Shown piece after piece: positions 13,730 to 32,929 of a stretch of 64,000 bases of DNA. The stretch is from Candidatus Multivoradales bacterium (GTDB lineage Bacteria > Acidobacteriota > Thermoanaerobaculia > Multivoradales > Multivoraceae). Position numbers and translations under genes: made by a program. The notes under the pieces were generated by a model. That model was not told where the DNA came from, made no database searches, and worked only from the letters and a program-made list of their open reading frames with translations. The stretch is taken from NCBI GenBank assembly GCA_965223325.1, contig CBDCWI010000002.1, forward strand, positions 2,336,001 to 2,400,000, written 5' to 3'. Every line of letters begins with the position of its first letter. Positions within the stretch are counted from its first letter, which is position 1.

Positions 13730-15639
13730 ATCGCGGTAGGAGCGCCGGTTGCCCGGCGCCCCCCGCACAGATCCCAGCGTGCACTGCTAATGCACTGGGC
13801 TCCTGCCTCAGGTATTGACGACAAGTCGCTCATCAGGCCAGGGATGTTGGACTCGGGCTTTGGGTAGGTAGTGGGCCACCAGGGCCCACATCCGTTTCCA
13901 GGACGTGCGGTCTTTGTCACTGCGTCGGCGCAGAGCGCGCATCCAGTGCCGAATGACCTCCTGTCGAAAGGCGTTCAACGCCGCTGAGTTGCCGGGTACG
14001 CCGTAGTAGGCATTGAAGCCTCGCACCACGGATCCCAGCCAGAGACCTTGCTCTGGTAGCGGCGAGTGTCGGTGTCCCAGAAGGGCCGTACCGACAGCCT
14101 TCAGTGTCCTGCGGATTCGGTGGCGGCTCGTGATGCGCTTCAGCAAGAACCTCCCTCGACTAGACTGCGCACAGCAGTGCGTAAAGCCTAGAAACTCGAA
14201 GGTCTCCGGCCGCCCGAGACCTCGCGCGCGTCGGTTGTAGGCCGCAAAGCGGCCAAACTCCAGCAGGCGCGTCTTCTCGGGTTGGATCTCCAACGAGAAG
14301 TCACGGAGTCGCAGGTTCAGTTCCTCGAGGAATCGTTCTGCCTCCTCCTGCCTCTCAAATCCAACGATGAAGTCATCCGCGTAGCGCACGAAGATCATGT
14401 CCCCAAGCGCGTTGCGTTTCCTCCACTGCTGGACCCAGAGATCGAGCACGTAGTGCAGGTACACGTTCCCGAGGAGAGGCGAAATCGTCGCCCCCTGAGG
14501 AGTCCCCCGCGTGCTCGCGTGCCACTTACCGTCTTCCATCACTCCGGACCTCAGCCATTTCTGGATGAGGCGAAGGATCCTACGGTCTCCGATACGGTGC
14601 TCGAGAAACTTCACCAGCCACTCGTGGTCCAGGGCATCGAAGAACCCACGAATGTCTGCGTCGAGCACCCAGTTCACCTTCCGCTTTGTGATTCCAACGA
14701 ATAGCGCATCCAAAGCATCGTGCTGGCTGCGGCCTCGCCTGAATCCGTATGAGTACCCGAGAAAGTCTTCCTCGTAGATCGCATCCAACACCGAGACGAC
14801 GGCGCGCTGAAGGATCTTGTCCTCCAACGTGGCGATGCCAAGCGGTCGGAACCGCCCATCCGATTTCTCGATGTAGACGCGACGAGTCGCACTCGCCCGG
14901 TAGCTCCCACGGTGGACACGAGAGTGCAGGTCCTCGAGATTGCTCAGCAAAGATTCTGCGTACTCGCTCCATGACACTCCGTCCACTCCTGCCGCTGCGT
15001 CTCGGTGCAACACGTCAAATGCGCTCCGGAGTCGCTCGACCGTGATGTGGTGAAGAAGCGCTGTGAACTTCACTTCCTTGCCCCTGCGGGCGGCTTCTCG
15101 TACACGGCCCAGCGCATTGCTCGCACTCTCCATCCGGCTCTGTGTCCGGGGTGCGTTTTGCTTGCCCGTGTTCCCCTTGGCCAGGCCCCTTCCCTCCACC
15201 GCCTCCGCCGCTGGTCTCCCACCGTTGTTCGACGACTTCGCAGGTACTACGGGCCTGTCTGACTTCCGCCATCCGTGCGTCATCGGCTTACGGCCTCTAG
15301 CCTTCCCGATGCGGACCAGATACCCAACTGGCCAGATCGCGGATCTCCCGGTTCTCGCGCATGGAGATTCCACACATGCACAGGGTCTACGACCGCGGGG
15401 AGTCGCCGCAGAGCTCGCGATAGCGCGCTACGGAGTCTCGCCTTCCGCTTCGCTTGACAGCGTCGGCACTCCCAAATTCTTATTTCGCGGCTCAATACCC
15501 GGCCTGTGTGTGCCCCTGTCAACGCTTCACCGCACCCTCGCGGGAGCCGGCGCATGACTCGGGGACCCTCTGGGTCGCTACCCCTTCGAGGGTGGGACTC
15601 TCTCATTCCTTTCTCCATGCCGGTTTATCCCGGCGTATC
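13730..15639 (-). mobile_element. Full-length group II intron (~1910 nt)
   Basis: D5 gAGCccagtgcattagcagtgcacgctgggatc; D6 ending cctaccgcgAT at 13730; 5' end gatacgccgggataaaccggc; EBS1 CAAGCG (15451-15456) complementary to exon end CGCTTG. Confidence 0.9.
13808..15283 (-). CDS. ltrA: Group II intron reverse transcriptase/maturase without endonuclease domain
   Basis: RPLGI, YGFR, DADIRGFFD, GTPQG, RYADD, FEFLGF; ends after domain X with no HNH. Confidence 0.95.
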   Translation of the reverse strand: MTHGWRKSDRPVVPAKSSNNGGRPAAEAVEGRGLAKGNTGKQNAPRTQSRMESASNALGRVREAARRGKEVKFTALLHHITVERLRSAFDVLHRDAAAGVDGVSWSEYAESLLSNLEDLHSRVHRGSYRASATRRVYIEKSDGRFRPLGIATLEDKILQRAVVSVLDAIYEEDFLGYSYGFRRGRSQHDALDALFVGITKRKVNWVLDADIRGFFDALDHEWLVKFLEHRIGDRRILRLIQKWLRSGVMEDGKWHASTRGTPQGATISPLLGNVYLHYVLDLWVQQWRKRNALGDMIFVRYADDFIVGFERQEEAERFLEELNLRLRDFSLEIQPEKTRLLEFGRFAAYNRRARGLGRPETFEFLGFTHCCAQSSRGRFLLKRITSRHRIRRTLKAVGTALLGHRHSPLPEQGLWLGSVVRGFNAYYGVPGNSAALNAFRQEVIRHWMRALRRRSDKDRTSWKRMWALVAHYLPKARVQHPWPDERLVVNT

Positions 15640-17606: not shown

Positions 17607-17795
17607 ACTCCGTGCGCCCCACAGAGTTCGTCCGCGAACGCTCCGGGCGCACTCCGTGCGCCCCACAGAGTTCGTCCGCGAACGCTCCGGGCGCACTCGG
17701 TGCGCCCCACAGAGTTCGTCCGCGAACGCTCCGGGCGCACTCGGTGCGCCCACAGAGTTCCTCTGCGAACGCTCCGAGCGCACTCCGTGCCCTAC
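17607..17795. repeat. 44-bp tandem repeat (~4.2 copies) of GTAG/GTGG-type REP-like hairpins
   Basis: Unit actccgtgcgccccacagagttcgtccgcgaacgctccgggcgc; palindrome gggcgcac-nnn-gtgcgccc preceded by GTRG on the minus strand. Confidence 0.85.
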
Positions 17796-18274
17796 CCGCT
17801 ACCCTCGTACATCGCCGGTAGCTCACGAACTTCGCTGCTCAAAGCCAAGAACGGGTTTACGACCCGAACCGAACCATAGTGACGACCGTGCTCGAAGTCT
17901 TCTGAGATGATCTCGGGAATCCCACCGACCTCAGCATAGGCCCAAAGATGGGCATCGAACCAGGAGAGCTGGTACGCCGAGACTCCACGCAAGGCAAAGA
18001 TCAAGACCTCTTCATCGGGATAGACAACCGGGAACTGCCGCATCCAGTCTTCAGCGGCTAGCAAGGCAGCCTCGAGCGGCAGCAGAGGCTCATCGCCCAG
18101 GTCGGGACGGGGTCTGATGACCGCGGCAACGAACTCGAGAATCGCCTGATGAGGCAACAAAAGGTCACCCGACACGAGACCGCGCCGCAAGATGCTAGTC
18201 GCCACCTCCTGCTTCGCCGCATCTCGTGGGTCGTGACGATAGACGAGAATATTGGTGTCAATCAGACTCGCCAC
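17792..18274 (-). CDS. vapC: PIN-domain toxin (VapC family)
   Basis: LIDTNILVY, QAILEF, SWFDAHLWA, SEDF: acidic PIN motifs. Confidence 0.88.
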   Translation of the reverse strand: MASLIDTNILVYRHDPRDAAKQEVATSILRRGLVSGDLLLPHQAILEFVAAVIRPRPDLGDEPLLPLEAALLAAEDWMRQFPVVYPDEEVLIFALRGVSAYQLSWFDAHLWAYAEVGGIPEIISEDFEHGRHYGSVRVVNPFLALSSEVRELPAMYEGSG

Positions 18275-18551
18275 GGCGATACAGATCCTCTCGGCTCCAG
18301 TCCCGCCTCGTCGTCAGCTGGGCTGGCAGCTTCAGCGTTTCCTGCCTTCTGCGCTGCCGTGCCGTCGCTTCGTCAAAGAGGCGTAAGCGTTCGGCCTGGC
18401 TGAGTTGGGTCTCGGTACAACGGCGGGGTGGCACGATCCGGATGAACTCCCCGGCCGCTTGGAAATCGATCTCGTCTCCAGGAACGATCCCGTACTCGTT
18501 GGCGAGGACCTTCGGAAGGGTGACCTGTAGTTTTGAAGTCACTTTTGCCAT
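18258..18551 (-). CDS. AbrB/MazE/SpoVT-family antitoxin (VapB-type)
   Basis: MAKVTSKLQVTLPK...GIVPGDEI; overlaps the PIN gene start. Confidence 0.88.
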   Translation of the reverse strand: MAKVTSKLQVTLPKVLANEYGIVPGDEIDFQAAGEFIRIVPPRRCTETQLSQAERLRLFDEATARQRRRQETLKLPAQLTTRRDWSREDLYRRGESD

Positions 18552-18591
18552 CTCCTTACTATAACAAGGACGCGATCCTTGACCAGCTCGC

Positions 18592-19987
18592 GCGCACGGC
18601 GATGCCGCGCACGGTAGGGGGTAAGTTTTGACGGCAACGCCGTACTGGGCGGCGCGCCGAGTTCCGGAGCACTCCGTCGGCCTCCTTTACGACCTCAGGG
18701 GGTTGTCGGGAGGGCTGAAACCTCGCTTTCACCACCCCTCCAACCGCGGCACTCCACCCGAAAGACGCAGCTCCGCCATTGCACCGGTAGGCGCGTTCCC
18801 CTCGAGCCGTCAACCACCTCTTCGTCGGCAGCCCGGACCGTCAGGGACCGTCGCGAGCACCCGGCCCAGGCACTTCCAGGGCCACAAACGGCAACGGGCT
18901 TGGGAAAGTCCCTGGCGGAAACTTCGCCTCCAGGTCACCACTCCACAGAAGATCGCGCGCCGTGCGATGCGCCCGCCTCACCGCATCGAATACCGAAAGT
19001 AGCCGATTACGCTCGTGCGAGTCCGACGCGATGACCCGGGGCCTCGGCCCCCAATCGAGCCTCCGCGGGCGGCGCATCGGACTCACTTGCGTCGTTTTGT
19101 AGGCACCGCGAGGCCTCGTGCCCTTTCGCTTGTGGCGCGCCCGGGTCTCGTCCTCGATCTCAACAATCATGCCGCGGGCCCAGTCGAAGTACTCCTCGTC
19201 AGGGAGGTCCTCGAAGCACGGAAGCTTCGATAACACGACCGTCTCGTGGCTCGAGAAGTCCTTATTCGCTCAAACGACGACCGGCTTTCGAAAAACGGGC
19301 ACGACGAAGCGCTGAACGATCGACCCAGGTGCCCTCGAGCTCGAAGGTCCCTGACCAGAGTGCCTCCCCTACCGACACGCCTGGCCACTTGCGAGGTGAA
19401 GACACCAACCCCGCCTTGCAACCCTGGGCAAGGATGTAGCGGAAACGACGGCAGAGGTCCTTCTTTGCGTGACCGGGAAACGACGTCTTGACGGCCCCTC
19501 CCACTTCGGCCCCTTGAACCCCCGCAGGATCCGCAGTTCCACACTCGTCTGGTGCTGAATGCGCCGCATGAAATCGGCCAGCTGCTGGGCGTCGCGAGCG
19601 CCCAGCAGAAGGTGAGCATGGTTGACCTGGTAGTCCAGGGCGTGGATCCGGATTTCGGTCTTTCGCTGCGCGCGGCCGATGATCCCGACCAGCAGATCGC
19701 GTAGGCGTGACGATGGCGCCAACAGGAAGAACCCGTTGACGATACGCCTTCGACGACTCCCCAACCACTTCCGTCGGTGGGGACATACCTCAGTTGATGG
19801 GCCATGACTCTTCGCACGGAACCATCGATGCCTTGCAGGGAGCCGAATCCTATCGGATGACCCTCGCCATCGACCAACTGTCATTTGTGAATCGGGCTAC
19901 ACGTCAGGTCGGTGGCGAGTCCCGGTCCTGCGCCACGACTTCGACTCAAAACTTACCCCCGACTGGGCGCGGCATCGCCGCGCGATC
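18592..19987. mobile_element. Y1/HUH transposase element bounded by ~42-bp hairpin-containing inverted ends
   Basis: Left 18592-18635 gcacggcgatgccgcgcacggtagggggtaagttttga; right 19946-19987 read inward gatcgcgcggcgatgccgcgcccagtcgggggtaagttttga. Confidence 0.7.
18841..19805 (-). pseudogene. Frameshifted Y1 (IS200/RAYT-like) transposase
   Basis: Pieces in different frames: MAHQLRY; FLL.P...GIIGRAQ...NHAHLL (HUH)...FM; RYILAQG.KAGLV..P..WPG; C-terminal FPPGTFP. Confidence 0.8.
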
Positions 19988-20142
19988 TCGTCCAGACCGT
20001 ATGGATCGACGAAACGGACTGGGTTGTTCAGAACGTAGGCGTACAGATTCCAACTCTGGGGCAGCGAGAGGTCGCCGCCAATGGGGTCAGTGGAGGTGAA
20101 TCGTGAGTAGGTTGGGTAGTAGTAGCGAGCATGCATGTAGTC
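19988..20142 (-). pseudogene. Orphan Rhs core-end fragment truncated just after DPxG
   Basis: DYMHARYY...TDP...PQSWNLYAYVLNNPVRFVDPYGLDE, then abuts the transposase right end. Confidence 0.85.
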
Positions 20143-20143
20143 G

Positions 20144-20719
20144 CTACTTGCCCACGGTTTCCAATCTGGCTGTGACCCTCTCCAGAATTCTCTCGTCGGA
20201 GACCTTCGAGCGGGATCCCGTACCCAATATCTCAGCCCACTCGAAGCCGACCGCCCGGGCTAGACCTTCCAGCGCGGTCTCGGCAATGACGCTGCCCTCG
20301 GGCGCGCTCACATAGGTCGAGTGCCCTTCGAGTTCGCGCAGCATCACGATGTCATTATTCAATCGGAGATGAGCACCAGCCACTGAGATAGCCGAGAGCC
20401 GGCAGTCATCTTCGGCATCCCACTCTCGCCCGCCAAGGTCCGCCATGATCTCGTCGCGATAGTCGGCTGACAGGCCCCAGTCGTTACAAAGCACAGATAG
20501 TGCTAGCGCGTGCGTCATCGGATCCGTTCGACAGCCGAGAAATCGCACCACCAGATCGCGATAGCGGATGGCCTGAGCTGCACCAAGGATATTGAGCAGT
20601 GTGTAGGCGTCGCCCTCGCCTCGCACGAGTCGTGCCGCGATCTCGTCAAGCTCATGCGCCGAGATGCGCCCGTCTTGGGCTCGCCGCAATGCGCCCGAAA
20701 GGTCCTCCGCGTTCATCAC
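20144..20719 (-). CDS. Putative immunity protein for the Ntox28-like toxin (helical, HEAT-like)
   Basis: Starts 3 nt after the toxin stop; all-alpha pattern DAYTLLNILG...LALSVLC..WGL. Confidence 0.7.
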   Translation of the reverse strand: MMNAEDLSGALRRAQDGRISAHELDEIAARLVRGEGDAYTLLNILGAAQAIRYRDLVVRFLGCRTDPMTHALALSVLCNDWGLSADYRDEIMADLGGREWDAEDDCRLSAISVAGAHLRLNNDIVMLRELEGHSTYVSAPEGSVIAETALEGLARAVGFEWAEILGTGSRSKVSDERILERVTARLETVGK

Positions 20720-20722
20720 TTG

Positions 20723-23134
20723 CTACTTGGGAACGAACTTCCTGGACTGATCTAGGAGCTTGCTGGCATCAGCAAGTTCTCTGGTTAGGGCTTCACGCTC
20801 CGCTCGTGGAAGATCGACTCCGCTCAGCTTGGTGTTGATCGCGGAGATTCGGTTCTGAAGCCCCCGCTGGGCGTTGCGAACCTTCTGGACGTGATCGAAC
20901 GGCGTCCCGTCTGGCTTCACGGAGACGACTTCGCCCGCTAGCTCTCTTCGAGCTGCGTCAAGGGTCTCTGGAGTTAGATGCTCTTTGAACCTATCAGTCT
21001 TTCGAACTGCGGTCCCGACGACCCGATTCCCGTCGAGTGCCTTGTCCGCAGCCTGAAGACCGTCGATGAACCGACCGCCAACCGACGGCACGAACGGTAG
21101 CGCCGCTCCGGCGACATCGAGTACGGCCCCGAGGATGTTGCCGAACGATGGATCGTTCCGTGCCTGGTTGATCGAGATCCCCGCCATCGCGACGTCAAAG
21201 ACGATCTCGGCGGCCTCTCCGTCGGGATCGACGTTGATGATCGGATTGTTCCGAACGTAGGCATAGCGGTTCCACGACTGCGGGAGCATCGGGTCGTAGC
21301 TCTCGCCGCTCGGGTCGGTGGAGGTGAATCGCGAGTACGTGGGGTAGTAGTAGCGAGCATGCATGTAGTCGAGGTCATCCTCAGCCGAGCCGGTGTGGTT
21401 GAAGTCACGCTCGTGGCCGGTGAATTTCCACTGCAGGCCGTCCTGGTCTGACGTCGTCGCTTCGCGTCCGTAGGGGTAGTAGACGTCGTAGGCGACTTCG
21501 TTTCCGCCTGCATCAGTGGTCTGGCGCACGGTGCCGAGATGGTCGGTGTGGAGGTAACGGCGGCCTTCTGAGGTTTCGGCAGCCAGGACCCTGCCGAGGC
21601 CGCGGATGGTGTCTTCGTAGGTGAAGACGCCGTTGTCGGTGGTGTACTCGCGTAGCACCTGGCCGCCCAGGTCGCGGATCGCCCACTGGCTGCGTGCGGC
21701 CAGGTCGTACTCCCAGATGCGCTCGCCCGAAGCGTCGTAGATGTAGACCGCTGAGGTCTGTTGGCTCGGTGGCGAGGTCGACCCGTCGTCTTGCACGCAC
21801 GGGTTGTCGGGGAAGACCGAGCTGGCGCAGAGGACCTCGCCGAAGGCGCCGTAGCGGAAGATGCGACCGTCGGCCTCGACGAGGCTTCCGTCCTGCTGGT
21901 AACTGGTGCCGGCGACGGTCAGTCGGTTGGTGTGTTGACTGGTTGGGGTCGCACGGCCTCCGCCACCTGCCGTCCTCTGGAGGTTGCCGAAGACGTCGTA
22001 GGTAAACACCTGGCGGCGCTCGATGCCGGCGCCGTTGCGGGCGAGGTGCACTCCCGCCTCGGCGAGGCGGTTGACGGCGTCGTAGCGGTACCAGGAACCG
22101 CCGATCGAGAGGATGTTGCCTGAGCCGTCGTAGGTGTAGGTGCCGGTGGACCAGTTGCGGTTGCTCCCTACACCGCTTGTCGAGATGCGCCGAGGGCGTC
22201 TCTTGCTGTAGGGGTCGAGGGTGTGGGTCTCGGTGACGCCGTTTCTAAACGCGATGCTTACGAGGGCCTGGTTCCGGTGGTAGCCGACGGAGTCGAGGTA
22301 GCCGGGCACCTTCCGCAGGAAGCCGCGGCCGTACTCGAAGCTCACGCTCCGTGACGGAGCGGGATCGTTGGTGCAGGGTGTCGCGTAGCCCCCTCCTTCA
22401 CACTTCGGGTAGTGGATTCTGGTGGTCGCTCCCAGGTCGTCGTACTCGAAGCCCTGGCTGAAGGCGTTCGACAGGTTGCCGTTGACGTAGACCCCGGTTC
22501 TTCGAGACGACGCGAGGCCGCCCCTGCCCCTGTACTCGAGCTCCTGCTCGACGCGCACGACGTGGTCTTCGCGGTCGGGCCGGTAGAGCGTCAGGTGGTT
22601 GTGGCGGACCAGGCGGGTGACTTTGCCGCCGCTGCGGTTGCTTCCCGAAGAGGCGTTCGACCACTGCCACTCTTTGAGTGGCAGGAAGGCAGCCTCCTCG
22701 TTCTGGCAGTCACCCGCGAAGCTGAAGTCGATGCGCACCGCCCGGCCCGCCCCGTCATAGCGGTGGCAGAGCTTGCGCCAGGCGTCGCGCACGAAGCCGA
22801 CGTTGCCGAGGGCGTCGTAGTCCGAGTACTGGATCTCTTTGGGTGCATGGCCCGCCGTGCGCTCGGGATGGTCTTCTCCGACCAGGAAGCCACGCAGGTC
22901 GTAGGAGAAGGTGCGCTTCTGGCTCACTCCGCCGTGGCTGGTGGTTACGGTGCGCAACCGATCGGCATGGTCGTAGCCGTAGGTTGTGTGGACGCGCGCC
23001 TTCGCGGCACCGGCTGAGTGCTCCTCCACCTTGTAGAGGCGACCGAACGCGTCGTAATGGAGGCGCTTGGGGATGCTTTCGAGCGTGACGTCGCTGCCGC
23101 TTCCTCCCCGGCGCACCACGGGCTGGCTGAACAC
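20723..23134 (-). CDS. Orphan (5'-truncated) Rhs with C-terminal Ntox28-like putative tRNase
   Basis: Core duplicates the main Rhs; PQSWNRYAYVRNNP..VDPDG; tip KEHL...AARREL.G......DG..FDH...V. Start is arbitrary, so it may not be translated. Confidence 0.8.
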   Translation of the reverse strand: MFSQPVVRRGGSGSDVTLESIPKRLHYDAFGRLYKVEEHSAGAAKARVHTTYGYDHADRLRTVTTSHGGVSQKRTFSYDLRGFLVGEDHPERTAGHAPKEIQYSDYDALGNVGFVRDAWRKLCHRYDGAGRAVRIDFSFAGDCQNEEAAFLPLKEWQWSNASSGSNRSGGKVTRLVRHNHLTLYRPDREDHVVRVEQELEYRGRGGLASSRRTGVYVNGNLSNAFSQGFEYDDLGATTRIHYPKCEGGGYATPCTNDPAPSRSVSFEYGRGFLRKVPGYLDSVGYHRNQALVSIAFRNGVTETHTLDPYSKRRPRRISTSGVGSNRNWSTGTYTYDGSGNILSIGGSWYRYDAVNRLAEAGVHLARNGAGIERRQVFTYDVFGNLQRTAGGGGRATPTSQHTNRLTVAGTSYQQDGSLVEADGRIFRYGAFGEVLCASSVFPDNPCVQDDGSTSPPSQQTSAVYIYDASGERIWEYDLAARSQWAIRDLGGQVLREYTTDNGVFTYEDTIRGLGRVLAAETSEGRRYLHTDHLGTVRQTTDAGGNEVAYDVYYPYGREATTSDQDGLQWKFTGHERDFNHTGSAEDDLDYMHARYYYPTYSRFTSTDPSGESYDPMLPQSWNRYAYVRNNPIINVDPDGEAAEIVFDVAMAGISINQARNDPSFGNILGAVLDVAGAALPFVPSVGGRFIDGLQAADKALDGNRVVGTAVRKTDRFKEHLTPETLDAARRELAGEVVSVKPDGTPFDHVQKVRNAQRGLQNRISAINTKLSGVDLPRAEREALTRELADASKLLDQSRKFVPK
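21347..23107. repeat. ~1.76-kb direct repeat of Rhs core (partner 24766-26526)
   Basis: Near-identical DNA and protein (GGSGSDVTLESIPKRL...DYMHARYY) at an offset of about 3419 bp. Confidence 0.9.
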
Positions 23135-23174
23135 CAGGTACGCGCGCCCGCCCGAGGCCGCATGCTCCTGGTGT

Positions 23175-23534
23175 CTACCCTTCTCTGAGATCTTCCAACA
23201 AGCATCCGAGCTCGTCGTCGCCGGTCAGTTCGACTGCACTCTCCAGCGCCTTCATCGCCTCGGTCTCCCTACCGAGAGACCAAAGCGAGTGGAAGAGTGC
23301 GCCGTGCGCCAGCAGCGAACTTGGATTCAGCGTCAGAGTCTCATCAAGTATTGGCACTGCTTCTGCTGGCCGTCCCGCTCGCCATAGTGTCGTGCCCAAG
23401 AGGCCCAGGACGACAGGGTCCTTTCCCGAGGATGATTTCAGGTCGAGAAGAATCTCAATCGCTCTCTCCGGGTCGGTTTCTTTGATTGCAATCGCCTCGG
23501 CGAGGCGATCGCAAACCGTCTTACTCCTCTTCAC
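23175..23534 (-). CDS. TPR-containing putative immunity protein, paralog 2
   Basis: AIAIKETDPERAIEILL...GLLGTTLW...AVP.L...LFHSLW aligns with 23796-24173; GTG overlaps the stop of the cryptic toxin tip. Confidence 0.75.
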   Translation of the reverse strand: MKRSKTVCDRLAEAIAIKETDPERAIEILLDLKSSSGKDPVVLGLLGTTLWRAGRPAEAVPILDETLTLNPSSLLAHGALFHSLWSLGRETEAMKALESAVELTGDDELGCLLEDLREG

Positions 23535-23670
23535 GATTCTCTCCTGGGTCGTCGAACTCCCGAATCGCATCGGCTGTGAGTCGATTCGGCTTGCTTACGT
23601 GGTCGAAGCAATCCTGTGACTTTGTTGGGCTGTCGATGATCACGCCCGTCGTCCTGCCCTGTCGAAGATC
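23521..23670 (-). pseudogene. Cryptic 49-codon toxin-tip remnant paralogous to the main Rhs C-terminus
   Basis: DLRQGRTTGVIIDSPTKS...EEE* versus the main Rhs DLRRGKTDGVIIDSIEKS...EDE*; not in the ORF track. Confidence 0.75.
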
Positions 23671-23712
23671 GCACGGCGATGCCGCGCACGGTAGGGGGTA
23701 GGTTCTGACGGC
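23667..23712. repeat. Solo copy of the Y1-element end motif
   Basis: gatcgcacggcgatgccgcgcacggtagggggtaggttctgacggc, nearly identical to 18594-18635. Confidence 0.85.
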
Positions 23713-23795
23713 GGGGGCAGGTTTTCACAGCGTCGCCGGGCCCCGACTGTGCGCAGCATCCTCCTACCCACCTCCGCGGGGCCGTAAGGATTACT

Positions 23796-24173
23796 TCAGC
23801 CCGAGAGGTTCTCCGAGGCTCCTTCAATGGAAACGAGGAGATCGGCGAACTCGCTAGAGCCGGTTCGACGCACCGCGTCCCGAAGAGCTGCAACTGCGTC
23901 TGCCTTTCTGCCCTGATCCCACAGTGCGTGGAACAGAACCCTGTGCGCGTTCTCCGAGTTCGGCGAGCTCTGCAAACAACTCCGAAGGTGCGGTACCGCT
24001 TCTCGAGGCCGCTTTCTGGACCACAACAGGCTCCCAAGAAGCCCAGCGATCACGGGATTGCCGCCGAACTCCTGCCGTACTGGCAAGAGAAGGTCAATCG
24101 CGGCGTCCGGATCGTCCGTCTTGAGCTCGATCGCGGCTTCCAGAACCTCGCGTTCTCGTTTACTCATCTTCAT
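23796..24173 (-). CDS. TPR-containing putative immunity protein, cognate to the main Rhs
   Basis: Overlaps the Rhs stop; MKMSKREREVLEAAIELKTDDPDAAIDLLL...AHRVLFHALWDQGRKADA TPR-like pattern. Confidence 0.78.
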   Translation of the reverse strand: MKMSKREREVLEAAIELKTDDPDAAIDLLLPVRQEFGGNPVIAGLLGSLLWSRKRPREAVPHLRSCLQSSPNSENAHRVLFHALWDQGRKADAVAALRDAVRRTGSSEFADLLVSIEGASENLSG

Positions 24174-27100
24174 CGCGAAGACCCCAATCTTCCAGGGCGT
24201 CGTCGAGAGTTCGGATCCTGTCGAGCGCGTTTTGAGCTCGCCGCTCCGATTTCTCGATACTGTCGATGATAACGCCATCTGTCTTCCCTCGCCGGAGATC
24301 CGACTGCTTCTTCTCGATGCTGTCGAGCTGATCCAGGGCGTCGCTACCTGTTTCGATGGTGCGGCTGTCCCTGCCGGTTTCCGAGGACTGACCTTCATCG
24401 TCGACATCTGTCGCGTCTTCGTCTGAACGGGAACTCCGAAAGATGTTCGCTATCGCATCCCGAGCTGCTCGTCCAAGGTCGATCAGAGCTTCAGCACCCT
24501 CACGCAGATCCTCTTGCACGACTTCCAGGTTTGTCATCTCAGGCTGTACCGGGTTGGGGCTGGATGCCCAAACGGCTACTGCTCCTGCAGCCGCAGCGGT
24601 AGCGCTGACCACAACAACAGTGCTCGAGACCGGCTCTCGCCCGTCAGGGTCGACCTTCGTCAGGGGGCTCGCAGTTGCGTACGTATATTTGTTCCAGGTC
24701 TGCGGAAACCCGGGCTTCCCCGAGTTGATCGGATCAGTTGTTGTAAACCGGCCCAGCCCCGGCGAGTAGTAGCGAGCATGCATGTAGTCGAGGTCATCCT
24801 CAGCCGAGCCGGTGTGGTTGAAGTCACGCTCGTGGCCGGTGAATTTCCACTGCAGGCCGTCCTGCTCTGACGTCGTCGCTTCGCGTCCGTAGGGGTAGTA
24901 GACGTCGTAGGCGACTTCGTTGCCTTCTCTATCGGTGGTCTGGCGCACGGTGCCGAGGTGGTCCGTGTGGAGGTAGCGGCGGCCTTCACTCGTTTCGGCT
25001 GCCAGGACCCTGCCGAGGCCACGGATGGTGTCTTCGTAGGTGAAGACGCCGTTGTCGGTGGTGTACTCGCGTAGCACCTGGCCGCCCAGGTCGCGGATCG
25101 CCCACTGGCTGCGCGCTGCCAGGTCGTACTCCCAGATGCGCTCGTCCGAAGCGTCGTAGATGTAGACCGCTGAGCTTTGTTGACTCGGTGGCGACGTCGA
25201 CCCGTCGTCTTGAACGCACGGGTTGTCAGGGAAGACCGAGCTGGCGCAGAGGACCTCGCCGAAGGCACCGTAGCGGAAGATGCGGCCGTCGGCCTCGATG
25301 AGGCTCCCATCTTGCTGGTACCGGGTGCCGGCGACGGTCAGGCGGTTGGTGTGTTGACTGGTCGGGGTCGCACGGCCTCCGCCACCTGCCGTCCTCTGGA
25401 GGTTGCCGAAAACGTCGTAGGTAAACACCTGCCGGCGTTCGCTGCCGGCGCCGCCGCGGGCGAGGTGGACTCCCGCCTCGGCGAGGCGGTGGACGGCGTC
25501 GTAGCGGTACCAGGAGCCGCCGATCGAGAGGACGTTGCCTGAGCCGTCGTAGGTGTAGGTGCCGGTGGACCAGTTGCGGTTGCTCCCAACACCGCTTGTC
25601 GAGATGCGCCGAGGGCGTCTCTTGCTGTAGGGGTCGAGGGTGTGGGTCTCGGTGACACCGTTTCTAAACACGATGCTTGCGAGGGCCTGGTTCCGGTGGT
25701 AGCCGACTGAGTTGATGTAGCCCGGGACTTTGCGCAGGAAGCCGCGGCCGTACTCGAAGCTCACGCTTCGTGACGGGGCGGGATCGTTGGTGCAGGGTGT
25801 CGCGTAGCCCCCTCCTTCACACCGCGGGTAGTGGATTCTGATGGTCGCTCCCAGGTCGTCGTACTCGAAGCCCTGGCTGAAGGCGTTCGACAGGTTGTCG
25901 TTGACGTAGATCCCGGTTCTTCGAGACGACGCGAGGCCGCCCCTGCCCCAGTACTCGAGCTCCTGCTCGACGCGCACGACGTGGTCTTCGCGGTCGGGCC
26001 GGTAGAGCGTCAGGTGGTTGTGGCGGACCAGGCGCGTGACTTTGCCGCCGCTTCGGTTGCTTCCCGAAGAGGCGTTCGACCACTGCCACTCCTTGAGCGG
26101 CAGGAAGCCGCCCTCCTCGTTCTGGCAGTCACCCGCGAAGCTGAAGTCGATGCGCACCGGCCGGCCCGCCCCGTCATAACGGTGGCAGAGCTGGCGCCAG
26201 GCGTTGCGCACGAAGCCGACGTTTCCGAGCGCGTCGTAGTCCGCGTACCGGGTCTCTTTGGGTGCATGGCCCGCCGTGCGCTCGGGACGATCCTCGGAAA
26301 CCAGAAAGCCGCGCAGGTCGTAGGAGAAGGTGCGCTTCTGGGTCACTCCGCCATGGCTGGTGCGCACCGTGCGCAGTCGATCGGCATGGTCGTAGGTGTA
26401 GGCCGTTTGCACACGACTCTTCGCGGCACCGGCTGAGTGTTCCTCCACCTTGGAGAGACGACCGAACGCGTCGTAGTGGAGGCGCTTGGGGATGCTTTCG
26501 AGCGTGACGTCGCTGCCGCTTCCTCCCGCGCCGACTTCGGACCATTCGGTGGTCAGCCGGATCCCGCGATAGACGAACCGTTTCTGGTGCACCTTCCCCT
26601 CAGGGGGACGAATCACCCGTGCGCGCCCGAACGGGTCGTAGGAGAGAAACTGGGTGCGTTTCGAGGTGTCGCCCCACTCGGAGACGAACCGGCGGTTGCC
26701 GCTCGGGTCGTAGCCGATGATCCGGTTGCTCCAGATGCCGCCCGGGAGCAACCGGCTCTCGAGGTTCAAGCGGCCCAGATTGTCAAAGCGCACCCGCTCC
26801 CGGGCGAGATCTCCACCGGTGCGCTTCCCGTTGGGGCGGTAGTGGGTATAGACCCAGCCACCGTCGTTTCCCTCGGGCCTCGTGTAGCGATACTCGAGCC
26901 AGGTCGTCTGGTCGGGTTCGAGACGACGGATGCGCCCCAGGCGATCGAAGCTGTAGTCGATACCGAGACCCGATCCATCGGTCGAGCGGCTCAGATACCC
27001 GGTACTCGGATCGACCGTTCCCGAGAGCTCGACCGGGTAGCCCACAAAACCCGCACGGCTGAGCGTGCCGTAGCGATAGCGCGCCTCGCGCACGTAGGCA

Positions 27101-29922
27101 GGAGCAGCGGCGTCGGCCGAGTGGAGGTCGCCACCGTAGATCCGCTCCGTGATGCGGCGCTCAGCAGCACCGAAGGCCTGGCGCGACCAGCGGGTGCGCA
27201 CATCGCCGGGGCTCGTTCCCGAAGCCTGCTCACGAACGCGCTTGTGGGAAAGAAAACCCGTTCTCGGATCGAAGCCGTAGTCGGTGCGTGCCTTGACACC
27301 ACCTTCCTCGATGGTCTTGTACGTGTAGGTCCCGAGAAGAAACGGCTGACCCGGATCGCCCTTGGGCCAGGGGCTCCAGGGAGAGAGCCCACAGGCACCA
27401 CCGGGGAGAGCCACTCCATCGTTGTCGACCCGCAGGACGCCGCGCGACGGGTGATGTTCGGTGCGGGCGATCTTGAAAAGACTCCCGGGAAGATTCCCGC
27501 CCGTCACCTGGCGACGGTAGTTCCCGTAGCCGTCAAAGCAGGTCTTCTCTTCGTAGGTGAAGCGGTTCCCGTCGTCGAGGTAGCGCGTGTGACTCGAGCG
27601 CTCCCGACGGTTGCCGCACGAGCTCAGCGGCTCGCACGACTCCTTGTTCCACTCCCAGCGGCTAAAGACCTGACGCACCACCGGGCAGTTGCCCTTCCCA
27701 TCGCAGTCGAGGATCTCGCGCGACAGGTAGCGTTTCTCGGTGGAGTTGGGGAGCGTGTCGCTCACGTGGCGTGAGAAGGGAAGCCCCTGCTCTTCGCTGC
27801 GGTAGCCGTCCCGCGACTGGATCCCCCTGCTCCCCGCCATCCAGCCCGAGAAGTAGTGCCGCTCCTTGTCGCCGAGCGGAGTGGTGACCGTGGTCGTCGT
27901 GTACTGCTCTTTTGTCTGGTCGCTGGGGTTGGAAGGAGAGCAGACGCTCTCCACCGAGGAGTGGGTTGCGTTCTCGTAGCGCCAGCGGCCGAGATCGGCT
28001 CCCGAATGAGCCCGGCGTTCTCTCGTTGCAACCCCCGGGGTCGTTGGCGGGGTGACATTCGGGGTTCCCGGGGGCGTGTCCTCACAGGAGACGATGACCG
28101 GGATCTTCCACTCCCGCCAGGTGTAGACCAGCTTCCCGAGGGTCGGAAGGGTGAGACTCGAGAGCATGCCACCAGTCGTTGCGTTCCCCGCCGGGCCGCC
28201 GGGGCCACCCCAGTAGCGCAGGGTGTAGGGCCGGGTCGTACCAGCCTCGGGAGAGGTCAAAGAACGCAGAAGCGGCACCGCGACGTGCCCGCCGCGGTAG
28301 TCGTTGATGGGCCGTGGAATCGAGGCCGCTCCCGGTTCGTAGCCGAAGACCCAGGTGGCTCGCTCGCCCCCGAATGCCGCCAGGTCAACCGTCTGTGGCA
28401 GATGACGAGTCACACCGTCCCAGGTGCGAGGAGCCCAGGTCGCCGTGTGCTCGCGGCCGACCGTGTCGGTGATCTTCGACCACTGGCGACCGCTCCCGTT
28501 GTAGTGCACGGTGAGCGCATTGCCGAAGCGGTCTTCGATGCGGGTCAGCCGATAGAGCGGCCGCGTGCTGCCGGCGACACTGAAGGCGGTGAAGGTGTGG
28601 AGCTCACCGCTCCCGAAGTGGATGCGCCGGGTGTTGTCGCCAATGAGCTCGAGGCGCAGGTAGCTTCCGTCCCTGGTTTCGTACCAATCACCGCCGATTC
28701 CGTAGAAGGAGTGGTCGGCGCCATCGGGACCGCTGTAGACCCAGAGAGGACCGGGGTTCCAGTGACCGCCCTCGTTCGGGGCGAAGAGCTCGCCCAGGGA
28801 GAAGCGCCAGCCGATCCCGGCGTTGAAGCGCGTCGACGCCGAGGCCTCGGCCCCGGCCGAGTTGCTCTCCCAGTCCCAGAGGCGGGAGTTATAGACCAGG
28901 CTGAAGCCGTACGAGAAGCCATCGCCCACCGGGTAGGTGATCCCGATCGGGATGGTGAGCGACAGGTTGCCGTTGAACAGGTTCACCTGGTCGAGGTCAT
29001 TCCACTCGTACAGCTGGTCGGCATCGAAGCCGCGCTCGAAGTTGGGGAGCTTGCCGCCCGTCTCGGTGTTTCGACCCTGAGCACGCGCTCTGGATGCGGC
29101 CTCGGTCGTCAAGTGAACGGAGCGTTCGAAGGCCTCTGCTGTTTCGGTGCTGTCGAGGGCACCGCCTCCAGCCAGCAGGACGGCGTTCAAACGCACCACG
29201 AAGAAGTCGAGCGCACGCGGGGCGAGACCCACCACCACGTCTCCTTCTTCGAGAGCCTCGGGCGGCGCTGTGCTCGAACCCCGGCCCACGAAGTCGGCCA
29301 GCTCGACGAGCGCTTCCCCGTTCTCTTCTTCGTCGCGGTCTGTTTCCTGCCCGTCGACCGCTTCGTGGGCCCAGACACCCCCGCCCGAGGAAGTGGAGTT
29401 CTCGGGCCGCACGACCCAGAACTGCATGCGCCCAGAGCGCGCGTGCAGCACATCCGCCAGGCCGTCGCTGGTGAAACCCGAAGAGCGCACCAGCTCCCGC
29501 GGAGACGGTATGGCGCGCGGCTTGGCACCGCCCAGCCCCGAGCCGATCGCAGCACCGGTCGACAGGTCGACGGCCATCCACACCGACTCTGGTGCCACGA
29601 TGTCGCCGTTCTCCGGCACAAAGCGCACGACACCGTCGCCGTCGCTGTCATCGAGAAGCTCTTCGGTTGTCGCGGTCTGCCAGAGCGAACCGTTGAAGAA
29701 CCGGCTATGGCCCACCAACAGAATGCGCTCGCCGGCCGCGACGCCCCGGACGACGACCGCATCGTCTTCGGCGTAGAGCGAAAGGCCGTCGTTCGTGGCG
29801 GCGATGGCGGGGCTCGGCAGGAGCCCGAGAAGCGCAAGCGCTGCTAGGGCGACCAGCCCTGTGAGCCGGCAAGGGCCAGAACTAAACCGAAACAGGGAAA
29901 CAAAGAGCGACGGACGATGCAT
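24160..29922 (-). CDS. Rhs/YD-repeat polymorphic toxin with N-terminal signal peptide (1920 aa)
   Basis: Signal-like LVALAALALLGLLPSPAIA; VNLFNGNL, YD repeats, HTDHLG, FTGHERD, ARYY, DPDG, then a ~160-aa variable tip. Confidence 0.92.
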   Translation of the reverse strand: MHRPSLFVSLFRFSSGPCRLTGLVALAALALLGLLPSPAIAATNDGLSLYAEDDAVVVRGVAAGERILLVGHSRFFNGSLWQTATTEELLDDSDGDGVVRFVPENGDIVAPESVWMAVDLSTGAAIGSGLGGAKPRAIPSPRELVRSSGFTSDGLADVLHARSGRMQFWVVRPENSTSSGGGVWAHEAVDGQETDRDEEENGEALVELADFVGRGSSTAPPEALEEGDVVVGLAPRALDFFVVRLNAVLLAGGGALDSTETAEAFERSVHLTTEAASRARAQGRNTETGGKLPNFERGFDADQLYEWNDLDQVNLFNGNLSLTIPIGITYPVGDGFSYGFSLVYNSRLWDWESNSAGAEASASTRFNAGIGWRFSLGELFAPNEGGHWNPGPLWVYSGPDGADHSFYGIGGDWYETRDGSYLRLELIGDNTRRIHFGSGELHTFTAFSVAGSTRPLYRLTRIEDRFGNALTVHYNGSGRQWSKITDTVGREHTATWAPRTWDGVTRHLPQTVDLAAFGGERATWVFGYEPGAASIPRPINDYRGGHVAVPLLRSLTSPEAGTTRPYTLRYWGGPGGPAGNATTGGMLSSLTLPTLGKLVYTWREWKIPVIVSCEDTPPGTPNVTPPTTPGVATRERRAHSGADLGRWRYENATHSSVESVCSPSNPSDQTKEQYTTTTVTTPLGDKERHYFSGWMAGSRGIQSRDGYRSEEQGLPFSRHVSDTLPNSTEKRYLSREILDCDGKGNCPVVRQVFSRWEWNKESCEPLSSCGNRRERSSHTRYLDDGNRFTYEEKTCFDGYGNYRRQVTGGNLPGSLFKIARTEHHPSRGVLRVDNDGVALPGGACGLSPWSPWPKGDPGQPFLLGTYTYKTIEEGGVKARTDYGFDPRTGFLSHKRVREQASGTSPGDVRTRWSRQAFGAAERRITERIYGGDLHSADAAAPAYVREARYRYGTLSRAGFVGYPVELSGTVDPSTGYLSRSTDGSGLGIDYSFDRLGRIRRLEPDQTTWLEYRYTRPEGNDGGWVYTHYRPNGKRTGGDLARERVRFDNLGRLNLESRLLPGGIWSNRIIGYDPSGNRRFVSEWGDTSKRTQFLSYDPFGRARVIRPPEGKVHQKRFVYRGIRLTTEWSEVGAGGSGSDVTLESIPKRLHYDAFGRLSKVEEHSAGAAKSRVQTAYTYDHADRLRTVRTSHGGVTQKRTFSYDLRGFLVSEDRPERTAGHAPKETRYADYDALGNVGFVRNAWRQLCHRYDGAGRPVRIDFSFAGDCQNEEGGFLPLKEWQWSNASSGSNRSGGKVTRLVRHNHLTLYRPDREDHVVRVEQELEYWGRGGLASSRRTGIYVNDNLSNAFSQGFEYDDLGATIRIHYPRCEGGGYATPCTNDPAPSRSVSFEYGRGFLRKVPGYINSVGYHRNQALASIVFRNGVTETHTLDPYSKRRPRRISTSGVGSNRNWSTGTYTYDGSGNVLSIGGSWYRYDAVHRLAEAGVHLARGGAGSERRQVFTYDVFGNLQRTAGGGGRATPTSQHTNRLTVAGTRYQQDGSLIEADGRIFRYGAFGEVLCASSVFPDNPCVQDDGSTSPPSQQSSAVYIYDASDERIWEYDLAARSQWAIRDLGGQVLREYTTDNGVFTYEDTIRGLGRVLAAETSEGRRYLHTDHLGTVRQTTDREGNEVAYDVYYPYGREATTSEQDGLQWKFTGHERDFNHTGSAEDDLDYMHARYYSPGLGRFTTTDPINSGKPGFPQTWNKYTYATASPLTKVDPDGREPVSSTVVVVSATAAAAGAVAVWASSPNPVQPEMTNLEVVQEDLREGAEALIDLGRAARDAIANIFRSSRSDEDATDVDDEGQSSETGRDSRTIETGSDALDQLDSIEKKQSDLRRGKTDGVIIDSIEKSERRAQNALDRIRTLDDALEDWGLRDEDE

Positions 29923-32147: not shown

Positions 32148-32225
<78 letters not shown>

Positions 32226-32287
32226 CAAACCCGTTGGCATCTCCCCAGGGCCCAAGAAGCCCTCCGCAAGTGACCTTCGGGCACAGA

Positions 32288-32587
32288 CCAATCCCGAAAA
32301 GATCGCCCCGACGAGCACCGCCCTACCCCCTCACCAAACGTCGACGGTCAACCCAGTCCCAAGCTGAGGAGCGGCGAGCGCAGGGCCGAGGGTGCTCTTT
32401 CCGGCCGCACTAGAAGGCCCACGGCAGTCAACAAAAGACAAGCGGCCGGAACGCTATGCCTCTATCGAGGCCAGCGGGCGGCGCCACCCAGCCGCAGGAA
32501 CAAGAAGCGACGCCGTGCCCGGAGGCCGGGCGCCCGCCGTTCACCAGCGGCGCCGTCCCCAACCTCAACAGTCCAGCAAGGCCACCA
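32288..32587. repeat. Structured intergenic element, family A, copy 2
   Basis: Direct repeat with 32609-32907; stem ttccggccgc/gcggccggaa; inverted, diverged homolog of 118-330. Confidence 0.85.
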
Positions 32588-32608
32588 ACCAACGCACGCA
32601 CTGACACT

Positions 32609-32907
32609 CCAATCCCGAAAAGATCGCAACGACAAGCACCGCCCCACCCCCTCACCAAACGTCGACGGTCAACCGGTCCCAAGCTGGGGAGCGGCGGGCG
32701 CAGGGCCGAGGGTGCTCTTTCCGGCCGCACTAGAAGAACCAAGGCAGTCAAACAACGATAGGCGGCCGGAAAGCTATGCCTCTATCGAGGCCAGCGGGCG
32801 GCGCCAGCCAGCCGCAGGAACAAGAAGCGACGCCGTGCCCGGAGGCCAGGCGCCCGTCGTTCACCAGCGGCGCCGTCCCCAACCTCAACAGTCCAGCAAG
32901 GCCACCA
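32609..32907. repeat. Structured intergenic element, family A, copy 3
   Basis: Tandem copy of 32288-32587, period about 321 bp. Confidence 0.85.
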
Positions 32908-32929
32908 CCAAGCCGCGAAGAAAGGAAAG

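Follow-up and report, generated by a model that had tools for sequence, protein, structure and literature searches.

Probable remnants of two copies of a TIRtron-like Y1 element among orphan Rhs toxin tips in a Multivoradales bacterium

Several described arrangements of mobile-element genes bear on the locus considered here. TIRtrons, as treated in the relevant sections of PMC3733652 and PMC6006769, are Y1 transposase genes flanked by terminal inverted repeats (TIRs), most of which share the sequence GGGGWSAS, and include an Acidobacteria group; the same sections describe TIR copies that occur alone or as dimers. Their enzymes, the TIR-associated tyrosine transposases (TIRYT; Di Nocera et al. 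2013, PMC3733652), correspond to subclass 2.1 of Quentin et al. 2018 (PMC6006769), for which the classification given there has a median length of 238 aa. Class 2 REP-associated enzymes carry a Y---NP motif according to the same classification (PMC6006769). Elements of the IS200/IS605 kind (IS608, ISDra2) lack terminal inverted repeats, have dissimilar subterminal hairpins and a Y---Q signature, and insert 3′ of a given tetra- or pentanucleotide that is present only at the left end. Mobile sequences described in Rhs loci are of another type: H-rpt elements belong to the DDE-type ISAs1 family. These IS-like H-repeats sit among the orphan C-terminal tips downstream of E. coli rhs genes, as set out in the account of those loci in PMC3032704.

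The 64,000-nt stretch analyzed here (the window), from a Candidatus Multivoradales bacterium, probably holds two decayed copies of a single Y1 (HUH, single-tyrosine) element, TIRtron/TIRYT-like in its arrangement, which lie within orphan Rhs toxin tips and have been followed by deletions. The putative full copy (18594-19983, ~1.39 kb) would carry a 323-codon transposase gene, now broken by three frame changes; the second (23671-23760) appears to be a ~90-bp miniature composed of end sequences only, with one end broken in its hairpin. Damage to the toxin array would then consist of ordinary mobile-element scars, and a dedicated cassette-editing role, which a preliminary description of this region had proposed, is unsupported.

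The element ends appear to share one layout, in which a GC hairpin at the very tip (7-bp stem, 3-nt loop) is separated by a 6-nt spacer from a 15-nt G-box. The motif of hairpin and G-box is present at 18604-18631 (plus strand), 19946-19973 (minus), and 23681-23708 (plus), the three positions already given in the preliminary description; the 64-kb window has these three matches at ≤3 mismatches, and 100 shuffles had none. The 17-nt hairpin gives three matches as well (18594-18610, 19967-19983, and 23671-23687; 0.33 expected, with 1 of 100 shuffles reaching three), and the G-box gives four (0.17 expected). The first two copies form inverted ends, 39 nt long, 90% complementary and 1314 nt apart, and they do flank the transposase gene as had been claimed. 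Both were delimited by motif scan and inverted-repeat search. End A, distal to the transposase gene (18594..18635, plus strand), is made up of a hairpin at 18594-18610 (GCACGGC-GAT-GCCGCGC, with one A.C mismatch), the 6-nt spacer, and a G-box at 18617-18631. End B, proximal to the gene (19946..19983, minus strand), has its G-box at 19946-19960, then the spacer and a perfect 7-bp hairpin at 19967-19983. Single-strand folding of the ends was not better than that of shuffled sequences (z = +0.23, +0.56, -0.51, -1.23, -0.51, and -0.90), nor was that of the 146-nt miniature region (z = -0.90), so the case for the hairpin is made solely by its conservation in three copies. No terminator-like site was found at any element end.

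A scan of genome-collection contigs with a degenerate 28-nt motif returned six loci, none of which has the hairpin within 2 mismatches or a Y1 gene (best tblastn E 0.57). They were taken as chance matches rather than real motif copies; three of the six share one sequence.

The third copy in the window had been described as solo. It is accompanied by a 20-nt core of the opposite end at 23741-23760 (1 mismatch; this core has four matches in the window, and none in 100 shuffles), and because this piece is inverted and lies 30 nt away, the two together constitute a ~90-bp miniature derivative of the element rather than a solo end (23671..23760, plus strand; motif scans and end alignment). Its type-A end is complete (23671-23712), with the hairpin at 23671-23687 and a G-box at 23694-23708, and is followed by a second, direct G-box at 23713-23727. 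The inverted type-B end is partial, consisting of CCCC, the spacer, the inner hairpin arm, and the loop; its outer 7-nt hairpin arm is absent, so the unit is incomplete. As a short non-coding unit with both parental ends in inverted orientation it is MITE/REPIN-like, though incomplete.

The transposase locus (18844..19805, minus strand), enclosed by the inverted ends, is the only Y1 locus of the window. It was recognized by a PF01797 match (24.5 bits, cut-off 23) and by alignment to P0001, the closest intact relative, a 323-aa protein from another contig that is 94% identical over a 131-aa C-terminal piece. Of P0001, the first 19 residues match one frame (19805->19749), residues 23-323 for the most part another, and 98-183 a third (19522->19265), with frame changes near 19749, 19480-19520, and 19262; since three frames are required to cover P0001, the resident gene is a pseudogene. 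Among the listed relatives, the only intact family member that might share the window's genome has 50% identity.

The assignment to the Y1 (HUH single-tyrosine) superfamily, also made in the preliminary description, is borne out. The intact P0001 matches PF01797 (25.6 bits, cut-off 23); the HUH and tyrosine residues are conserved among 54 aligned relatives (H65 in all 54, H67 in 51, Y126 in all 54); and the PDB fold matches of the AlphaFold model (pLDDT 93.9) are headed by 4er8_A (E 8e-6, TM on target 0.70), a REP-associated tyrosine transposase of E. coli, with the enzymes of ISDra2 and IS608 (2xqc, 2vjv) next. The C-terminal half is covered by no PDB fold match. The family is sizable, with 145 clusters at E<=1e-30, mostly matched over near-full length (~310 aa); look-alikes of P0001 in the Atlas are commonest in Acidobacteriota, Myxococcota, and Bdellovibrionota. 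The 90% cluster of P0001 has nine member sequences, and there are paralogues P0002, P0003, and P0006 (4 members); from these counts the close relative looks multi-copy, which is insertion-sequence behavior. A tblastn search of P0001 against a plasmid collection gave no match.

As a TIR-flanked Y1 element, the one described here resembles an already known kind, and the TIRtron/TIRYT arrangement is closer than that of REPtrons. Its Y1 gene lies between long terminal inverted repeats, there is no GT[AG]G at the hairpin foot, and each end has a GGGG-led box, although GGGGTAAG of copies 1 and 2 agrees with GGGGWSAS at only 7 of 8 positions and GGGGTAGG of copy 3 at only 6 of 8. There are differences as well. 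At 323 aa, P0001 is longer than the subclass 2.1 median; its family lacks NP in the Y motif; and residues 145-323 of P0001 and P0002 have no Pfam match at E<=1, including the HTH-like Bac_DnaA_C, HTH_23, and HTH_28. The hairpin is at the very tip of each TIR, and the close relative looks multi-copy. Finally, a tetranucleotide-adjacent joint (GATC, discussed below) and a miniature are present here, neither of which was found in the descriptions of TIRtrons in the sections cited above (PMC3733652, PMC6006769).

One alternative is a domesticated REPtron/REPIN-type system, in which the motif copies would be members of a genome-wide repeat family of a RAYT-like enzyme, a population with host-level roles whose Rhs copies are incidental. 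In such systems a single-copy gene is accompanied by tens to hundreds of cognate REP or REPIN copies in extragenic DNA. The core fold is indeed closest to that of a REP-associated (RAYT/TnpA-REP) enzyme (4er8), among NCBIfam models P0001 matches REP_Tyr_transpos best (E 5.8e-8), relatives are called RayT in two JGI records, and both the position of the gene between inverted, hairpin-bearing repeats and the inverted doublet of the miniature recall REPtrons and REPINs. The NCBIfam score, however, is 32.7 bits, far under the 80-bit cut-off, and the family has Y[LIV]L[AS][QHN]G as its tyrosine motif in place of the Y---NP given for class 2 in the classification cited above (PMC6006769). The hairpin foot carries GATC or GCGC rather than GT[AG]G; the gene copy here is decaying while its close relative is multi-copy, as for an insertion sequence; and the window has just two elements in 64 kb, both in coding DNA and none extragenic. 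A domesticated system therefore seems unlikely.

The inverted, hairpin-bearing ends had earlier been called atypical of IS200/IS605 and more like a REPtron, which holds, with the TIRtron arrangement closer still. IS200/IS605 elements do share the HUH motif and single catalytic tyrosine, hairpin-bearing ends, and a joint beside a specific tetranucleotide, with longer target duplication not evident here. The residue four after the tyrosine is Q, H, or N (27, 14, and 13 of 54 relatives; compare the Y---Q signature), followed by G in 45 of 54. Here, in contrast, the ends are inverted repeats of 39-43 nt that carry the hairpin at their very tip, the protein has twice the length, NCBIfam transpos_IS200 matches P0001 weakly (E 0.006; 16.8 bits against an equivalog cut-off of 55), and GATC is not limited to one end type.

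Both elements lie in what is, by its RHS repeats, DPxG core end, variable tip, immunity gene, and 5′-truncated repeats, an Rhs/YD-repeat array with orphan cassettes (all genes on the minus strand). The main Rhs gene (24160..29922, 1920 aa; profile searches) has a tip without a Pfam family match, and is accompanied by a TPR immunity gene, I1 (23796..24176; profile search), whose stop codon lies 35 nt from where the miniature is broken. On the other side of the miniature is a toxin-tip remnant (23521..23670), identified by homology to the end of the main tip and consisting of the last 49 codons and the stop; in alignment with the final 160 residues of the main protein, its first residue falls on residue 115 (15 of 29 identical, E 8e-7). 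An intact TPR paralogue of I1, here called I1′ (23175..23570; 131 aa, 45% identical to I1, 51/113), comes next, then a 5′-truncated orphan Rhs gene that has kept a whole Ntox28 toxin tip (20723..23134; PF15605, 91.2 bits), in which homology to the main gene begins near 23108. A 191-aa ORF after this tip (20144..20719), without a Pfam family match, is presumed from its position alone to be the immunity gene, I2. Last is an orphan Rhs core-end fragment without a toxin tip (19984..20136; TIGR03696, 51.6 bits, profile positions 33-76 of 76), which reads ...VDPYGLDEI and then runs into the hairpin of end B.

The truncations claimed in the preliminary description are thus present: the third copy cuts off a toxin tip and leaves its immunity gene whole, and the right copy truncates an orphan Rhs gene, although four codons after DPYG rather than three codons after DPxG, the last codon being the ATC of GATC. 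An origin of the core-end fragment and the tip remnant from one gene split by a single insertion was considered and rejected: ~114 residues are missing between the two, which have the same orientation, with the remnant upstream. With a main rhs gene and, after it, 5′-truncated core pieces that have a tip and an immunity gene each, the locus is like other Rhs arrays with orphan cassettes. It differs in that two of its three orphan units have lost the toxin part at a mobile-element end, where such arrays otherwise keep a whole, silent tip. The H-repeats are a likeness in so far as they too are mobile-element sequence in Rhs tip regions, but their transposase class is unrelated, and no hairpin ends or GATC joint are reported in the account of them in PMC3032704.

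In copies 2 and 3 the hairpin is immediately flanked on its outer side by AGATC (GATC at 19984-19987, the last four bases of the core-end fragment, and at 23667-23670, the start of the tip remnant), as previously described. A conserved junction tetranucleotide is accordingly found at the two ends that touch Rhs DNA, but not at end A, which has GCGC in the same place (18590-18593). GATC therefore abuts the foot at two of three complete ends, one of each end type, with only two elements available; from its frequency in the window (431 sites per 64000 positions, about one per 150 bases, twice the prediction from base composition) the chance of two such coincidences is ~1e-4. At the tip remnant, GATC was in the target beforehand, since the uninterrupted main gene has it at the aligned S-D-L-R codons (TCG GAT CTC CGG..., against GAT CTT CGA... 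in the remnant, where protein homology begins at the first residue). The GAGATC of the Ntox28 orphan was rejected as a second sign of a target-derived GATC; in the alignment it is shifted by 5 nt and belongs to a variable stretch. In the full copy GATC is at the type-B end, with GCGC at type A; in the miniature it is at the type-A end. Its presence at either end type means that the left-end target rule of IS200/IS605 would need extra assumptions, for example that either end leads on its own strand, or that the element carries its own terminal GATC.

The preliminary description went further, proposing that Rhs cassettes are edited or shuffled by an HUH enzyme cutting beside the hairpin at GATC, which removes toxins while keeping immunity, alongside homologous exchange. 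Some observations are in keeping with this: AGATC joins truncated Rhs coding DNA to both elements, at two of the three complete ends; both immunity genes beside the truncated tips are whole; and if GATC sites were chosen uniformly, the probability of both elements landing among the 31 of 424 sites that belong to the orphan part is only ~0.005. More speculatively, the miniature breaks off immediately behind the loop of its incomplete end, at ...CATC, which resembles a ...GATC cut site. Set against these are the dead local transposase gene and the lack of a second Y1 locus in the window; the joints, which are at non-equivalent cassette positions, one four codons into a toxin tip and the other 49 codons before a tip's end; and the other end of the full copy, which abuts the putative promoter of an antitoxin gene rather than a cassette. 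GATC, at twice the base-composition expectation, is common enough in the window that it confers no Rhs specificity. No published case was found in the literature searched on Rhs toxins with IS200 or GATC-hairpin tyrosine transposases. Cassette editing is thus very unlikely to be what the locus records. There is some clustering in the orphan part beyond what GATC explains, and selection, together with the way in which the window was noticed, is assumed to be its cause.

As another possibility, the full copy and the miniature, which have the same orientation, might form a composite transposon, bracketing 3.7 kb (the Rhs fragment, I2, the orphan Rhs gene with Ntox28, I1′, and the tip remnant) and moved as a unit by an enzyme acting in trans. 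The order of ends is the same from left to right (A...B, A...B), only cassette DNA is enclosed, and GATC is present at both inner ends. On the other hand, the terminal hairpin arm is absent from the miniature's outer end, the segment is known in one copy only, at this locus in one genome, and it starts and finishes in truncated genes. These genes keep array order and homology to the main gene, which fits decay in place and does not fit arrival from elsewhere, and a composite origin appears very unlikely. A broader form of the idea, to which we give about as little credence as to cassette editing, is that either hairpin end leads at GATC, and that pairs of elements, or an element with a miniature, bracket orphan Rhs cassettes, which would move from one locus or genome to another as circles of single-stranded DNA. 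If so, elements of this ~310-residue Y1 family would be a vehicle spreading immunity genes without their toxins.

For the favored reading, two decayed copies of a TIRtron-like element, the following course of events can be suggested. By analogy with other Y1 enzymes, the transposase would cut and rejoin single-stranded DNA at a tetranucleotide beside the recognized hairpin, provided that an intact enzyme is available, which for the miniature could act in trans; the G-box may be read by the conserved ~170-residue C-terminal domain. The proposed transposition is known here from sequence alone, and target choice, end definition, and deletion history are all drawn from the two elements seen (n = 2). 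Toxin sequence beyond each element would have been lost through later deletions at or between element copies: the entire tip after DPYGLDEI in one case, and in the other ~114 residues plus the core ahead of the tip remnant. Sequence is lacking on one side of each element: end A is 40 nt from the antitoxin start, and the miniature, at its broken side, only 35 nt from the stop of I1. The downstream immunity genes presumably persist because they are still protective at low cost, and the presence of the elements in orphan cassettes would reflect the dispensability of that DNA rather than any service of the enzyme to the toxin system. Under ordinary selection, insertion and deletion in dispensable orphan cassettes are expected to remove toxins and leave immunity in place.

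On this account two truncated Rhs toxin genes are explained as mobile-element scars, and a speculative "editing system" is kept out of the annotation. The locus also offers a handle on the poorly studied TIR-flanked Y1 transposases, with a defined end (terminal hairpin, spacer, and G-box), a candidate joint tetranucleotide in GATC, a natural miniature, and a C-terminal domain unmatched by Pfam or PDB fold searches. These could guide biochemistry on the use of inverted ends by such enzymes.

Outside the array, the full copy borders a toxin-antitoxin pair, both genes on the minus strand and identified by profile search: the antitoxin (18258-18551) is of the MazE/AbrB type and the toxin (17792-18274) of the PIN type. 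End A and the start codon of the antitoxin are 40 nt apart, and this interval contains a promoter-like site (18585->18558), which lies 7 nt from the end of the element.

The preliminary description proposed that an HUH nuclease cutting at GATC edits or shuffles Rhs toxin/immunity cassettes, removing toxins while keeping immunity. Its REPtron-like architecture and junction tetranucleotide hold up, while a cassette-editing system is unsupported on present evidence; most likely, the locus carries a TIR-flanked Y1 insertion sequence in decay, together with its miniature, both left as scars in dispensable orphan toxin genes.

The ~42-nt motif reported at three sites is real. A 28-nt search pattern (3′ hairpin arm, 6-nt spacer, and a 15-nt G-rich block, the G-box; GGGGGTARGTTYTGA) matches at 18604-18631 (+), 19946-19973 (-), and 23681-23708 (+), with no further matches in the window even at 3 mismatches, and none in 100 shuffles. 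The 17-nt putative hairpin, GCRCGGC-GAT-GCCGCGC, lies at 18594-18610, 19967-19983, and 23671-23687. Copies 1 and 2 form inverted arms (39 nt, 90% complementary) bounding a full element at 18594-19983, with copy 1 (end A) distal and copy 2 (end B) proximal to the transposase gene; copies 1 and 3 are in direct orientation and 95% alike across 43 nt. Copy 2 has a perfect stem, and copies 1 and 3 each have one A·C mismatch in it (G·T on the other strand). Predicted single-strand folding energies of the ends are no better than those of shuffles, so that it is conservation in three copies, not thermodynamics, that argues for the hairpin.

The third copy (23671-23712), first taken to be solo, has a partner: CCCCGACTGTGCGCAGCATC at 23741-23760, within 88 nt to its right, is the opposite-end core in inverted orientation with 1 mismatch (four matches to this core in the whole window, none in 100 shuffles), giving a miniature pair, and a second G-box is found at 23713-23727. 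The partial end retains the CCCC, spacer, inner hairpin arm, and loop; similarity stops directly after ...GCATC, and the outer hairpin arm is missing. The segment 23671-23760 is thus a ~90-bp REPIN-like or internally deleted form of the element, damaged at one end.

The full element contains a broken Y1/HUH transposase locus (19805->18844, -; PF01797, 24.5 bits, cut-off 23), the only one in the window. An intact relative, P0001 (323 aa), aligns to it in three frames, which cover residues 1-19, part of 23-323, and 98-183, so the gene carries three frame changes; identity within in-frame stretches is 91-95%. Across an alignment of 54 relatives, H65 and Y126 never vary and H67 is kept in 51; the tyrosine motif reads Y[LIV]L[AS][QHN]G. 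AlphaFold gave a high-confidence model for P0001 (pLDDT 93.9); its N-terminal half best matches 4er8, the E. coli REP-associated tyrosine transposase (E 8e-6), followed by the ISDra2 and IS608 transposases, and its C-terminal half found no PDB fold in the structure search and no Pfam family in the profile search. At E<=0.001 the family counts 2077 representatives, and at the stricter E<=1e-30 it counts 145, the latter mostly aligned over near-full length (~310 residues); Atlas look-alikes of P0001 are most frequent in Acidobacteriota, Bdellovibrionota, and Myxococcota.

Several categories of Y1 system can be compared. In classical IS200/IS605 elements (PMC6006769) the transposases are short, and the hairpins are subterminal and unlike each other, with no inverted repeats; the window element differs in both respects, and falls short of the IS200 equivalog. 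REP-associated enzymes are described in the same text as having a Y---NP motif and lying amid numerous REPs whose foot is GT[AG]G, whereas the window family lacks the NP, scores 32.7 bits where 80 are required, and seems to exist in several copies in a relative. The closest published counterpart is the TIRtron/TIRYT (PMC3733652): Y1 genes between long TIRs, many with a common GGGGWSAS (matched at 7 of 8 positions by the element's box, GGGGTAAG), with TIRs also single or dimeric; one sharply delimited group is from Acidobacteria. Pfam search of the window family did not detect the C-terminal HTH that subclass 2.1 is reported to have.

On the minus strand, the array begins with the main Rhs gene (29922->24160), which has RHS repeats and an Rhs-associated core; its 160-residue tip matches no Pfam family. 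Its N-terminus reads in translation as hydrophobic and signal-peptide-like, the first gene upstream of it encodes a POT-family transporter, and a Pfam scan of large flanking ORFs recognised no type VI secretion genes. After the main gene come I1, a TPR immunity gene that runs to 23796, a 35-nt spacer, the miniature, a 49-codon toxin-tip remnant (23670->23521), and I1′ (23570->23175), a paralogue 45% identical to I1 that matched only itself in a word-based search of 5.8 billion clustered proteins. The main tip (24160-24642) and I1′-type TPR immunity appear to be an undescribed toxin/immunity pair. Next are an orphan Rhs gene with an intact Ntox28 tip (23134->20723; 91.2 bits; homology to the main gene begins near 23108), its presumed immunity gene I2 (191 aa), and a 50-codon Rhs core end (...VDPYGLDEI) abutting the full element. 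Past the element and a further 40 nt lie genes for a MazE-type antitoxin and then a PIN toxin, also on the minus strand. A promoter-like site for the antitoxin (TGGTCA, 16 nt, TG-TATAGT) lies in 18552-18593, 7 nt from end A, so the insertion/deletion joint there may alter toxin-antitoxin expression.

As first described, AGATC lies directly outside the hairpin foot at both Rhs-facing ends (copies 2 and 3); copy 1 has GCGC there, not GATC. Residue 1 of the remnant aligns to residue 115 of the main protein's last 160 (DLRQGRTTGVIIDS vs. DLRRGKTDGVIIDS, E 8e-7), and the main gene has GATC at exactly the codons aligned with the remnant start, so GATC was present in the target before the element came; the element may in addition carry a terminal GATC of its own or recreate one. 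For the Rhs fragment's junction, a GAGATC in the Ntox28 orphan was not counted because it is 5 nt off register. With 431 occurrences in 64 kb against 210 expected from composition (twofold), GATC is a frequent target, and alone cannot confer a preference for Rhs DNA. If each of the 424 GATC sites lying outside the elements were equally likely to be hit, p would be ~0.005 for both events falling in the orphan part (31 sites) and ~0.02 for the whole array (63 sites); these values take no account of selection against disrupting needed genes, or of the window having been flagged because of these hits.

On the far side of the full element is the antitoxin promoter, not the remaining toxin tip; the miniature's broken end is followed by the 3′ flank of I1, not by the tip's first ~114 residues and core piece. 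Neither junction is a simple insertion with the other gene half beyond it. Insertion beside GATC, after which we infer that deletion at or between element copies would follow, accounts for both. The breaks are at non-equivalent positions in the cassette plan (4 codons into a tip vs. 49 codons before a stop), so that the exact coincidence with cassette breakpoints holds only in the sense that the elements made those breakpoints. E. coli H-repeats are a precedent for mobile-element sequences among Rhs tips (available text of PMC3032704); no literature linking Y1 elements to Rhs cassettes or a GATC joint was found among the records searched, some by title only.

The 90% cluster of P0001 has 9 member sequences, and its paralogues P0002, P0003, and P0006 share a longest listed contig of 2,144,090 bases; we take this to mean that an insertion sequence is present there in multiple copies. 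I1′, the window's own protein, is listed with a 4,546,094-base contig, as is just one family member, P0010 (intact, 319 aa, 50% identical to P0001). There is therefore no evidence for a close intact copy in the window's genome, where P0010 may be the family's sole working enzyme. Scanning a genome collection for the element motif gave chance matches only, and a plasmid collection held no relatives of the transposase.

A second mobile element, a group II intron (13808-15601, -), lies 3 kb from the Y1 element: Rfam RF02005 (domains D1-D4; 15383-15601, 180.6 bits) adjoins a 521-aa reverse-transcriptase ORF (13808-15373; RVT_1, E 9e-39). Between the PIN toxin and ECF sigma-factor genes is a 44-nt tandem repeat (17607-17790; 4.2 copies, 95% matches), unrelated in sequence to the element ends, with an 8-bp GC palindrome in each unit (GGGCGCAC...GTGCGCCC, by eye). 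A tRNA gene (32148-32221), some 2 kb upstream of the main Rhs gene, has immediately behind it a tandem duplication of 320 nt (32288-32911; 2.0 copies, 93% matches); this stretch (32148-32911) could be the edge of an integrated island with the Rhs array, toxin-antitoxin pair, and mobile elements. Finally, a ~420-nt duplication at 576-1399 consists of 261-nt and 139-nt blocks, 97-99% alike, and includes four 29-30-nt arms arranged as inverted pairs, 97% complementary.
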